Of a stretch of DNA of 64,000 bases, positions 55,420 to 57,570 are shown one piece after another. Made by a program: the position numbers and the translations under genes. This DNA is from an uncultured Porphyromonadaceae bacterium (GTDB lineage Bacteria; Bacteroidota; Bacteroidia; Bacteroidales; Muribaculaceae): NCBI GenBank assembly GCA_900541835.1, contig UQLL01000001.1, positions 43,915 to 107,914 on the forward strand, written 5' to 3'. Numbering within the stretch: position 1 is the stretch's first letter; every line of letters starts with the position of its first letter. Under the pieces are notes generated by a model that searched no databases, was not told where the DNA came from, and saw only the letters and a program-made list of their open reading frames with translations.

Positions 55420-57570
55420 TCAGCGGCTGGAGAGGATGCGCTCGCCGTTGAGGAAAGCGAGATGCTTGCGGAAGTCGAGCAGCTCGGCGAGCTGCTTCAT
55501 GGCCTCCAGCTTTTCGGCGTCGGAGGCGCAGGAGAGGATGCGGACCTTGACGTCGGCAATCTGCTGCTCGAGCACACCGGCACGGAGCTCGTTGATGGTG
55601 CGCGGCAGGATCTCGGGCAAGCGTTCGGCCTCGGTCTGCACGGTGCCTGTCTTCCGATGGTAGCGGCTTAGAGTATAGGGCTCCGCCACCATCTGGCAGA
55701 CGAGGGTACGGATGCCGTCGTCCTCGTGGCTGCTGAGCTGACGTCCCAGCCAGGTGGCGGAGAACTCGAAGAGGGCCTTGTCGAAGTCTGCCTGGATTGC
55801 CTCTGTCAGGCGCTGTTCGGCCTGCTCCAGCTCGGGGATGGAAGACTCCGTCTCCGAGAGCTTGGCGATTTCGGCGGATAGGCGTTCTTCGCCTGCTTTC
55901 TCCAGTTCCTCAATCTTAGACGCCTCGGCGGCGGCGTAAGTTTCGCGCAGGGCGAGAATTTCAGTCATGAGGGCCGAACAGAGAGGGTCGGTGAGGTGCA
56001 TGTGGTCGGCCTCCAGCTCGGAATTGACGTACTCGGCGAGGAATACGGGAGTAGGCTCGGGGTCGTCGTCGGTGGCGGCCGGGGAGAAATGGGTCATGCC
56101 GTATCGGACACAGAGTCGGAGCAGGCGGCGCTCCAGCTTCTGTAGTGGTGCGGGGCCGGAGTGTGCAGAGGATGAGAGGGGGGTGCCGGGAGCCGGAGAG
56201 GAGGGGGGCGTCCCGACAGGCGTGGCAGGTGAGGAGGCGGACGCACCAGGGTGCGTCCCTACATGGCGACGCTGCTCTATCAGCTTCTGCGCCACGATGT
56301 CGGCTTCGTAGCTGAGCACCTGTTCGTCGATGCCGAGCAGGCTGGAGCAGGTCTGGATGTAGACGTTGCGCTTGATCTTGTCTGGGATGGCGCCGAGGCT
56401 CTGGACGATGCTGCGTGCCGCCTCGGTGCGCCGTATGGGGTCGCGGGCGTCCTGGAGCAGCACCTGCGTCTTGAAAGTGATGAAGTCGGTGGAATGCCCG
56501 GCGAAATAGCAGCGCACCTCCTCGGGGGTATGCTTGCGGGCGAATGAGTCGGGGTCGTCGTTGTCGGGCAGCAGGAGCACCTTGATGTCCATGCCCTGTG
56601 CCAGGAGCATGTCGATGCCGCGCATGGAGGCCTTGATGCCGGCCGGGTCGCCGTCGTAGACCAGCGTTACGTTGCGGGTAAATCGGTGTATGAGGGCTAT
56701 CTGGGAGTCGGTAAGGGCGGTGCCGGAGCTGGCGATGGCGTTGCGCAGTCCGGCCTGCCACATGCCGATGACGTCCATGTAGCCCTCGACGAGGTAGCAG
56801 CAGTCCGCGCGGCCCATCTCTACGCGGGCCTGGTGGAGGCCGTAGAGTTCGTTGCTCTTGTGGTAGAGGGGGGTCTCGGGTGAGTTGATGTACTTGGCCT
56901 TGGAGCCCTTGAGGTCTCGTCCGCCAAAGGCCACCACCTTTCCGGCGGCGTTAAGCACGGGGTAGATGACGCGTCCGCGGAAGCGGTCGTAGAGTCCGTG
57001 GTCTCCCTTTATCAGCAATCCAAGCTCTACAAGCAGGTCAGTGTTAAAACCATCCTTGCGGGCGAGGGCTTCGAGGACTCTTCGTTCGGGAGCATAGCCG
57101 AGGCGGAAGTGGCGGATTGCCTCGTCGGTGATGCCGCGGCCGTAGAGGTAGCTGAGTCCGATGTTGCGGCCGTCGTCGGTGTCGGTGAGGAAGTGCTGGA
57201 ACTTCTGCATGGCCCACTCGTTGGCCACGAACATGGCCTCTCGCTTTGACTGGGACTCGCGTTCGGCGTCTGTGAGCTCCCGCTCCTCGATGGTGATGCC
57301 GTAGCGGCGGGCAAGCTGTCGCAGGGCGTCCTGGTAGCCGATGCCCTCCATCTCCATGATGAAGTTGACCGGGGAACCTCCCTTGTGGCAAGAGAAGCAG
57401 TAGCAGAAGTTGCGGGCCTTGTTGACCGAGAAGCTGGGAGTGCGCTCGTTGTGGAAGGGGCAGAGGCCCATGTAGTTGGCTCCGCGCCGGATCAGACGCA
57501 CATAATCGCCGACCACCTCTACGATGTCGGCGGCATCCTTGATGCGCTCCGCTGTGGCCTTGTCGATCAT
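55420..57570 (-). CDS. dnaG: DNA primase
   Basis: Zinc ribbon CPFHNERTPSFSV, TOPRIM (EGYMDV...DGDPAG) and a C-terminal helicase-interaction domain. 717 aa from MIDKATAERIK; the upstream Arg-rich extension is read-through. A REP element is in-frame at 56239-56263. Confidence 0.9.
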   Translation of the reverse strand: MIDKATAERIKDAADIVEVVGDYVRLIRRGANYMGLCPFHNERTPSFSVNKARNFCYCFSCHKGGSPVNFIMEMEGIGYQDALRQLARRYGITIEERELTDAERESQSKREAMFVANEWAMQKFQHFLTDTDDGRNIGLSYLYGRGITDEAIRHFRLGYAPERRVLEALARKDGFNTDLLVELGLLIKGDHGLYDRFRGRVIYPVLNAAGKVVAFGGRDLKGSKAKYINSPETPLYHKSNELYGLHQARVEMGRADCCYLVEGYMDVIGMWQAGLRNAIASSGTALTDSQIALIHRFTRNVTLVYDGDPAGIKASMRGIDMLLAQGMDIKVLLLPDNDDPDSFARKHTPEEVRCYFAGHSTDFITFKTQVLLQDARDPIRRTEAARSIVQSLGAIPDKIKRNVYIQTCSSLLGIDEQVLSYEADIVAQKLIEQRRHVGTHPGASASSPATPVGTPPSSPAPGTPLSSSAHSGPAPLQKLERRLLRLCVRYGMTHFSPAATDDDPEPTPVFLAEYVNSELEADHMHLTDPLCSALMTEILALRETYAAAEASKIEELEKAGEERLSAEIAKLSETESSIPELEQAEQRLTEAIQADFDKALFEFSATWLGRQLSSHEDDGIRTLVCQMVAEPYTLSRYHRKTGTVQTEAERLPEILPRTINELRAGVLEQQIADVKVRILSCASDAEKLEAMKQLAELLDFRKHLAFLNGERILSSR
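56239..56263. repeat. REP-like palindrome GGACGCACC-AGG-GTGCGTCCCTACA inside the dnaG coding sequence
   Basis: On the coding strand reads GTAGGGACGCACCCTGGTGCGTCC, encoding VGTHPGAS within the P/S/T-rich linker between the primase core and the C-terminal domain. Confidence 0.8.

Follow-up and report, generated by a model that had tools for sequence, protein, structure and literature searches.

We describe a short repetitive extragenic palindromic (REP) sequence that lies in frame inside dnaG, the gene for DNA primase, on a 64,000-nucleotide stretch of contig UQLL01000001.1 (GenBank assembly GCA_900541835.1, positions 43,915 to 107,914; hereafter the window). The DNA comes from an uncultured member of the Muribaculaceae (Bacteroidota), probably a Lepagella species. 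The element consists of a GTAG head followed by a GC-rich hairpin, and it is translated as the octapeptide VGTHPGAS. Very probably, a GTAG-headed REP from a family that accompanies REP-associated tyrosine transposase (RAYT) genes in related contigs entered the part of dnaG that codes for a linker and persists there as a harmless in-frame passenger. The block is found in this species and in none of the orthologues compared outside it, and copies of the same family in unrelated genes are read in the same register.

The dnaG copy has the full family consensus, in which the GTAG head is followed by GGACGCACC-CT-GGTGCGTCC (coordinates of all features are given in Table 1). Read on the minus strand from 56262 to 56239, its codons are GTA GGG ACG CAC CCT GGT GCG TCC, that is V-G-T-H-P-G-A-S. 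A first-pass annotation of the stretch had recognized this in-frame palindrome and its peptide but had extended it to 56263, one base too far, as the unit comprises 24 nt. The stem is perfect over 8-9 bp, with a calculated RNA folding energy of -15 kcal/mol. No direct repeat flanks the copy and no terminator-like site was found in dnaG. The corresponding DnaG peptide, HVGTHPGASASSPATPVGTPPSSPAPGTPLSSSAHSGPAPLQK, contains no internal lysine or arginine.

The encoded primase is 100% identical to the database protein P0001. It has the order zinc ribbon, DNAG_N, TOPRIM core (ending at about residue 410-417), linker (about 437-472), and C-terminal helical domain (from about 474). The first-pass annotation had placed the palindrome in a flexible linker, and this is borne out by an AlphaFold2 model built from 11 sequences, whose numbering includes one additional N-terminal residue (717 in all). 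In this model, residues 438-473, between a helix at 417-438 and the C-terminal helical domain starting at 475, have a predicted local distance difference test score below 50 and no secondary structure. The linker carrying VGTHPGAS is thus predicted to be disordered, and the domain that follows it would, by analogy with the Escherichia coli enzyme, bind the helicase.

The dnaG palindrome belongs to a larger family. A loose scan of the window found about 16 credible members with the consensus GTAG GGACGCACC NN GGTGCGTCC (G), whose GC-rich hairpins have stems of 8-9 bp and loops of 2-4 nt. With up to three mismatches allowed, the 20-mer core matched the window 18 times, counting both strands of palindromic sites, compared with 0.02 matches expected from shuffled sequences. 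Thirteen of the 16 members are intergenic, where intergenic sequence makes up 6.6% of the window (P = 2e-13). The exact GTAG/CTAC head is present on nine copies, including the one in dnaG, and the variant heads are GTAA, GCAG, GTCG, and GTGG. Four inverted doublets have their heads pointing outward and are separated by spacers of 23-129 nt, and two REPs show compensatory changes on both stem arms (GGATGCACC/GGTGCATCC and GGCTGCACC/GGTGCAGCC). The window therefore contains what defines a REP of the GTAG type, namely the head, a stem-preserving hairpin, many mostly extragenic copies, and inverted doublets, and the anatomy of the family is that of a GTAG-type REP/REPIN (REP doublet forming a hairpin). 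No Rfam family matched anywhere in the window.

This family resemblance bears on one objection, which is that GC-rich coding sequence for the linker merely resembles an intergenic palindrome by chance. The linker DNA is indeed GC-rich and of low complexity. However, in 25 of 25 nt, the GTAG head included, the dnaG copy matches the intergenic one at 23630-23654, where only 0.02 matches are expected even with three mismatches; moreover, three genes share one register and no orthologue carries the block. We consider such a coincidence hardly credible.

The comparison of orthologues had been proposed in the first-pass annotation as the check on a lineage-specific block, and we carried it out for both DnaG and the DEAD-box helicase described below. 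The VGTHPGAS block is absent from 80 orthologous dnaG loci and from 120 DnaG proteins outside the species; REP-free orthologues with the same linker residues, which would have spoken for coincidence, did not appear in this set. The 80 loci (1.4 Mb) contain only four loosely similar palindromes, and the length and sequence of the DnaG linker vary widely among them. The nearest DnaG proteins found outside the species (74-56% identity; 74-62% for the closest of them) lack the block, and L081, which is the locus from the closest relative found (protein P0002; 74% DnaG identity, 50% GC), has no REP copy. Within the species, the REP is present in all proteins and contigs examined (five contigs). One allele carries GTAGAGAC, in which GGG has become GAG, so that the peptide reads VETHPGAS (G to E) and both a stem base and the peptide are altered. 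The listed members of the 90%-identity cluster of DnaG are all 716 residues long, except for unrelated sequences of 324 residues. These were considered as truncated primases and rejected, because they are ABC-transporter ATPases identical to the product of the neighboring gene 54340..55314 and represent a clustering artefact. The block is species-specific and fixed in the species, and it appears to have arisen by insertion rather than to be ancestral.

Two other genes in the window contain a copy of the REP. The first-pass annotation had already noticed a decayed version in the tail of a DEAD-box RNA helicase, and our analysis agrees: the core at 29679-29699 reads GGG ACA CAC CAT GGT GCG TCC, encoding GTHHGAS, with two mismatches and a hairpin weakened to -9.6 kcal/mol. 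It is located at the start of the basic tail, past the Helicase_C domain (which ends at residue 340), and the block is absent from 120 DEAD-box proteins outside the species. The third copy lies in a gene for a protein with an HU domain and a LysM-like C terminus. Here, the orthologues keep the flanks on both sides (APLAPFV.. and ..DGTYI), and related species lack about 19 residues between them, which amounts to a clean 57-nt indel. The 57-nt block has a 12-nt direct repeat at its edges (GTCAAGGAGAAC/GTCAAGGAAAAC), and within it the head and hairpin are flanked by 9 and 12 nt that do not belong to the REP. Judged from the alignment, this indel is the best direct evidence that the in-gene blocks are insertions. 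Within the species (variants P0387 and P0394 included), this protein is 442, 446, or 450 residues long; the difference is due to an EQED repeat and to a GMYR insertion at other places in the tail and not to the REP block.

In DnaG, the DEAD-box helicase, and the HU/LysM protein alike, a whole REP unit is found in frame in a known gene whose homologues lack the segment. The copies in the latter two look older, with their mutated heads (GCAG and GTCG) and weakened stems. A perfect hairpin and an intact head suggest that the dnaG event was recent.

In all three in-gene copies of the window, the head lies on the coding strand, and one register is used. Within the palindromic core, this register yields T-H-x-G-A-S on either strand. 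The remaining registers yield G-R-T-x-V-R-P or D-A-P-x-C-V, and one combination of strand and frame holds the TAG of the head. Whether other copies fall in the same frame had been raised as a check in the first-pass annotation. We tested the rule suggested by the three window genes on metagenome loci from a scan with GGACRCACCNNGGTGYGTCC, comprising at least 120 stretches, by using copies deep inside long open reading frames (ORFs) and accepting a frame as a gene when it had a Pfam match. Among the matches listed, at least six further Pfam-verified genes carry an in-frame REP; six of six read T-H-x-G-A-S, and the regularity is seen in both orientations of the REP. The probability that six independent genes would share the register by chance is 0.4^6 = 0.004 if two of five frames are open, or (1/3)^6 = 0.0014 if one of three registers is permitted. 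A mobile-element primase-type protein resembling BT4734 carries a whole inverted doublet in frame, VGTHHGAS ... ADAPWCVP, with a spacer whose length differs between contigs. The second half of this doublet is the only exception to the register among these Pfam-verified genes.

The frame count excludes several kinds of ORF. Long ORFs that cross REPs in other registers (L162, L180, L138, L142, L130, frame 2 of L143, and L201:1185) were rejected as genes, as they have no Pfam match and a composition like that of antisense or off-frame sequence. Three frame-0 ORFs (L190, L095, and L189) were judged spurious by eye and likewise went uncounted. L126 looks real but was left out for want of a Pfam match, and the N-terminal extension of LptB on L113 and the N terminus of the RAYT were omitted because their start codons are uncertain. 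As a separate observation, the heads of in-gene REPs outside dnaG mostly read GCAG or GTCG (29676, 13719-13722, L157, L094, and L183), and the dnaG head is intact. In-gene copies with altered heads may be immobilized if the head is needed for cleavage by a RAYT.

We propose the following course of events. A REP unit would have been inserted into the segment of dnaG that codes for the disordered linker joining the primase core to the helical domain at the C terminus. We lean slightly toward a RAYT, an IS200-like HUH/Y1 enzyme acting on hairpinned single-stranded DNA, as the agent that moved it. Because head and hairpin together measure 24 nt, or eight codons, such an insertion would keep the frame of dnaG, and its register would put the TAG of the head out of frame, so that the gene would stay open. 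A small polar octapeptide in a disordered linker would presumably be harmless to the primase, allowing the passenger to persist, and selection would remove insertions at other sites or in other registers. The surviving in-gene copies would then all read T-H-x-G-A-S and occupy linkers, loops, and tails because the other insertions had been selected out. Since the rule holds in both orientations of the REP, selection on the encoded peptide explains it better than a property of the insertion mechanism.

A stronger version of this proposal is that only insertions read as T-H-x-G-A-S survive in genes, that REPs, filtered by selection, recurrently supply peptides for linkers and loops to many unrelated and even essential proteins, and that the dnaG copy is a live RAYT substrate. 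We put this forward tentatively and are inclined to doubt it as a whole. If true, REP 'exonisation' would have a general feature not reported before, namely the strict frame rule, possibly together with changes from GTAG to GCAG or GTCG that inactivate the heads of older copies.

A single register could also be read as a sign of function. Either the dnaG hairpin, at the level of DNA or mRNA, or the octapeptide itself might have been exapted, for example as a translational pause separating the two primase halves, a signal for RNA processing or stability, or a site for a REP-binding protein. The perfect hairpin (8-9 bp, -15 kcal/mol) shared by all contigs examined from the species and the one peptide register of every surviving in-gene copy among the matches listed are both compatible with this idea. 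Nevertheless, the block is missing from the other Muribaculaceae DnaG proteins examined, whose linkers vary freely, and the GGG to GAG change, which alters stem and peptide together, is a common allele. The lack of a terminator-like feature in dnaG and of a matching Rfam family, and the unrelated nature of the host proteins, argue in the same direction, as does the loss of the hairpin from the DEAD-box and HU copies, which is what neutral decay would produce. We regard exaptation as very improbable and retain the passenger interpretation.

RAYT genes accompany this REP in related metagenome contigs. A 179-codon ORF (L117:5521-6060, also on L151) matches the Pfam family Y1_Tnp with 25.1 bits (cut-off 23) and in NCBIfam scores highest, at 55 bits, against NF047646, 'REP-associated tyrosine transposase'. 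Across this locus (L117:5521-6110), a GTAG-REP overlaps the 5' end of the gene, within the part predicted to code for the N terminus (MENIHVGTHHGAS...), and the stop codon is followed by an inverted REP-CTAC. After a homologue 61% identical to it (L098:3890-4727, also on L100; GC 0.61), four REPs form an array of tandem units of roughly 96 nt, with one REP each. The RAYT associated with the REP contains the motifs NH[VI]H, WQ, and YIExNV and, judging from these, seems to resemble subclass 2.4 of Bacteroidetes and Cyanobacteria. RAYTs of subclasses 2.4 and 2.6 occur in Bacteroidetes, and transposase genes of subclass 2.4 often carry inserted REPs themselves (Quentin et al. 2018, PMC6006769), as does the gene on L117.

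Among the matches listed, metagenome loci L087-L206 contain the REP as a near-identical 24-mer, (T)TGTAG GGACGCACC NN GGTGCGTCC on contigs of 42-66% GC, mostly with the (T)TGTAG head, many of them in inverted doublets, and with loop dinucleotides that are contig-specific (TT/AA, AT, CT/AG, or AC/GT). The distribution is patchy, with almost no copies in the 80 Muribaculaceae dnaG loci versus those on the metagenome contigs, and the spread may be horizontal. A scan of viral contigs gave one locus. Within the species, REP loci are still changing, because L200, a second strain that is 99.4-99.7% identical to the window over 14602-26663, carries a single different REP (GTAT GGACGCACCACGGTGCGTCC, L200:8245-8264) in place of the 131-nt doublet at window position 18338-18469. 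The window doublet has long imperfect outer inverted repeats, GAGGGTGT...ACACCCTC.

Several observations weigh against the insertion of a RAYT-mobilized passenger into dnaG. The metagenome evidence comes from at least 120 stretches on contigs with no taxon assigned. The RAYT matches fall below the 80-bit NCBIfam cut-off, the Pfam match of the L098 homologue is below 23 bits, and no RAYT is linked to the host genome. No allele or close relative with an empty dnaG site was found, either among the cluster members read (40 of 164; 15 listed) or in the five same-species contigs, and the hypervariable linker is unalignable with that of the closest relative found (P0002/L081); for these two reasons, we can only infer the boundaries and the direction of the dnaG event. 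The dnaG hairpin has remained perfect while the DEAD-box and HU copies decayed, which fits a recent arrival but could also mean constraint. Finally, the 12-nt direct repeat in the HU/LysM gene resembles a target-site duplication, which is not expected from transposition of the IS200/RAYT type.

This last point also supports a different route, in which REPs are copied into genes by replication or repair (template switching promoted by the hairpin, insertion through microhomology, or gene conversion from another REP locus) with no direct role for a transposase. The HU/LysM insertion is the only in-gene copy with definable boundaries, and these enclose a 57-nt block with a direct repeat and non-REP sequence included. 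Two strains with different REP forms at 18338-18469 are what replacement or recombination at a hotspot would give, and tblastn detects no RAYT in the 64-kb window. On the other hand, RAYT genes in related contigs are flanked by exactly the same REP, the GTAG head of the dnaG copy is intact and its hairpin has the consensus sequence, with no flanking direct repeat, and a tandem duplication at a later time could have produced the direct repeat in the HU gene. We therefore consider the replication or repair route unlikely, and transposition by a RAYT remains our preferred, if only narrowly favored, explanation of how the passenger reached dnaG.

Comparison with known systems places the family among the GTAG REPs, a superfamily defined by Di Nocera et al. 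(2013, PMC3733652), who noted that TAG stop codons are often provided by the ends of REPs. As in the REP/BIME (bacterial interspersed mosaic element) sequences of E. coli and the REPINs of Pseudomonas, GTAG stands directly 5' of a GC-rich hairpin, the copies have a strong extragenic bias, and inverted doublets are formed. TAG stop codons, compensatory stem changes, turnover between strains, and, in related contigs, a Y1/HUH gene bracketed by inverted REPs are further traits shared with known GTAG REP/RAYT systems. Unlike these, the present family is hosted by Bacteroidota (Muribaculaceae), has a very short unit (a 20-nt hairpin with a loop of 2-4 nt), and is associated with a RAYT that lies under the NCBIfam equivalog cut-off. 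Di Nocera et al. reported GTAG REPs in Proteobacteria, Cyanobacteria, Chloroflexi, and the Planctomycetes-Verrucomicrobia-Chlamydiae group, with only CGTC REPs in Bacteroidetes (PMC3733652). In contrast to many species-specific REP families, nearly the same 24-mer recurs here across contigs that differ widely in base composition (42-66% GC, among the matches listed). We found no description of this family in the papers searched, either for the REP sequence itself or for REPINs and RAYTs of Bacteroidales.

Placement of REPs inside genes also has precedents. The same study described in-frame REPs and dimers inside known genes, such as GTAG repeats in uvrA of Opitutus terrae and REPs in recBCD, uvrD, and polA, and argued that intragenic REPs are nearly neutral and occupy linkers or loops; dnaG or primase is not mentioned, and the main text reports no regularity of reading frame (PMC3733652). 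Our in-gene copies are similar to these 'protein-decorating' REPs in that whole units lie in frame in known genes, notably genes of replication and repair, and they differ in that every single in-gene copy, among the matches listed, is in one register. The dnaG REP is a clean new example of an in-frame REP, a phenomenon known from other bacterial phyla. The first-pass annotation, which knew of no such case in Bacteroidales, had consequently overstated the novelty: in-frame intragenic GTAG REPs have been on record since 2013, and Bacteroidetes are known to have RAYTs. The one fresh point is the strict reading-frame filter.

The first-pass annotation had also drawn a parallel with the palindromic elements of Rickettsia (RPEs). 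RPE-1 reportedly spans some 100-150 bp, which encode 30-50 residues. The parallel is apt for behavior, since in both cases palindromic repeats lie in frame in functional ORFs and add a peptide to unrelated proteins in a passenger-like manner. It does not extend to membership: the present element is a 24-nt GTAG-tagged REP of Bacteroidales, accompanied by RAYT genes in related contigs, whereas RPEs are hosted by alpha-proteobacteria with an obligate intracellular life. RPE-4 and RPE-6, which are short, fall within the CGTC-tagged superfamily, which has no dedicated transposase (PMC3733652). HIP1 of cyanobacteria (PMC5861425) is likewise a short palindrome that is abundant in coding sequence; unlike our REP, it is 8 nt long, has no head or hairpin loop, is enriched in genes, where our REP is depleted, and has no link to a transposase.

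Our data suggest activity of REP/RAYT elements in Muribaculaceae of the gut and in gut bacteria related to them, with translated footprints in proteins, including one in the essential primase. They also give a survival rule at the level of sequence, that is, 24 nt, one register, and a position in linkers and loops. For annotation, it follows that a strong hairpin or an 'extragenic' repeat within a coding sequence need not signal a frameshift or a pseudogene, and polymorphic REP loci could serve as strain markers. What is known of primase, or of how REPs work, is unchanged by the finding in dnaG.

Table 1. Positions of the in-gene REPs, their host genes, and the remaining family members in the window, followed by REP-carrying genes on metagenome contigs.
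Feature	Position	Strand	Details
dnaG, DNA primase, 716 aa	55420..57570	-	Pfam Zn_ribbon_DnaG, DNAG_N, Toprim, DnaB_bind; TIGR01391, 440 bits
REP in dnaG, full consensus	56239..56262	-	Head GTAG; VGTHPGAS, residues 437-444
Possible second copy in dnaG linker, relic-like, no hairpin	56208..56217	-	GTCGGGACGC = V-G-T, same frame, 45 nt downstream of REP
DEAD-box RNA helicase gene, 475 aa	28536..29963	+	Pfam DEAD, Helicase_C; homologues
Decayed REP in DEAD-box gene	29676..29699	+	Head GCAG, GGACACACC-AT-GGTGCGTCC; AGTHHGAS, residues 381-388 of 475
HU-domain protein, acidic linker, transmembrane helix, LysM-like C terminus, 442 aa	12895..14223	-	Pfam, NCBIfam, orthologue alignment
Decayed REP in HU/LysM gene	13699..13722	-	Head GTCG, GGACACACC-AT-GGTGCATCC; VGTHHGAS, residues 168-175
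Inverted REP doublet, intergenic	18364..18434	.	Heads outward; compensatory changes in both stems
Single intergenic REP	21595..21618	-	CTAC head on + strand; between convergent genes
Inverted REP doublet, intergenic	23630..23706	.	Left copy equals dnaG copy over 25 nt
Inverted REP doublet, intergenic	28310..28486	.	Left copy degenerate; 129-nt spacer; just upstream of DEAD-box gene
Intergenic REP	36648..36672	-	Head TAG (36671-36669) is stop codon of gene 36669..38549(-)
Intergenic REP	44353..44377	-	Head TAG (44376-44374) is stop codon of gene 44374..45606(-)
Inverted REP doublet, intergenic	51599..51674	.	Left copy degenerate
Degenerate intergenic REP copy	52750..52769	.	No recognizable head
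Intergenic REP, 5-nt loop variant	62940..62965	-	Head shifted by one base
BT4734-like protein, about 770 aa, mobile-element primase-type	L101:7681-7774; also L107, L114, L121, L131, L188 (at least 6 contigs)		Whole inverted doublet in frame
ABC-F ATPase with REP	Metagenome, among the matches listed		In linker ahead of C-terminal coiled coil
SpoIID-domain protein with in-frame REP	Metagenome, among the matches listed		
DUF6850 protein with REP	Metagenome, among the matches listed		Opposite orientation; RRTHQGASL
TonB-dependent receptor with REP	Metagenome, among the matches listed		In N-terminal extension; LRTHQGASLQ
BirA-type ligase with REP	Metagenome, among the matches listed		At residue 188, past catalytic domain (Pfam 52-163 of 278)

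Finally, we considered the relic-like stretch GTCGGGACGC in the dnaG linker. By local alignment, its similarity to the REP is not significant (p = 0.24 versus shuffled sequences). When one mismatch is allowed, GTAGGGACGC has four matches outside REPs in the whole window, and its proximity to the dnaG REP has a p value of about 0.003. The segment at 56208-56217 may be the relic of a second REP copy or of a 45-nt duplication.

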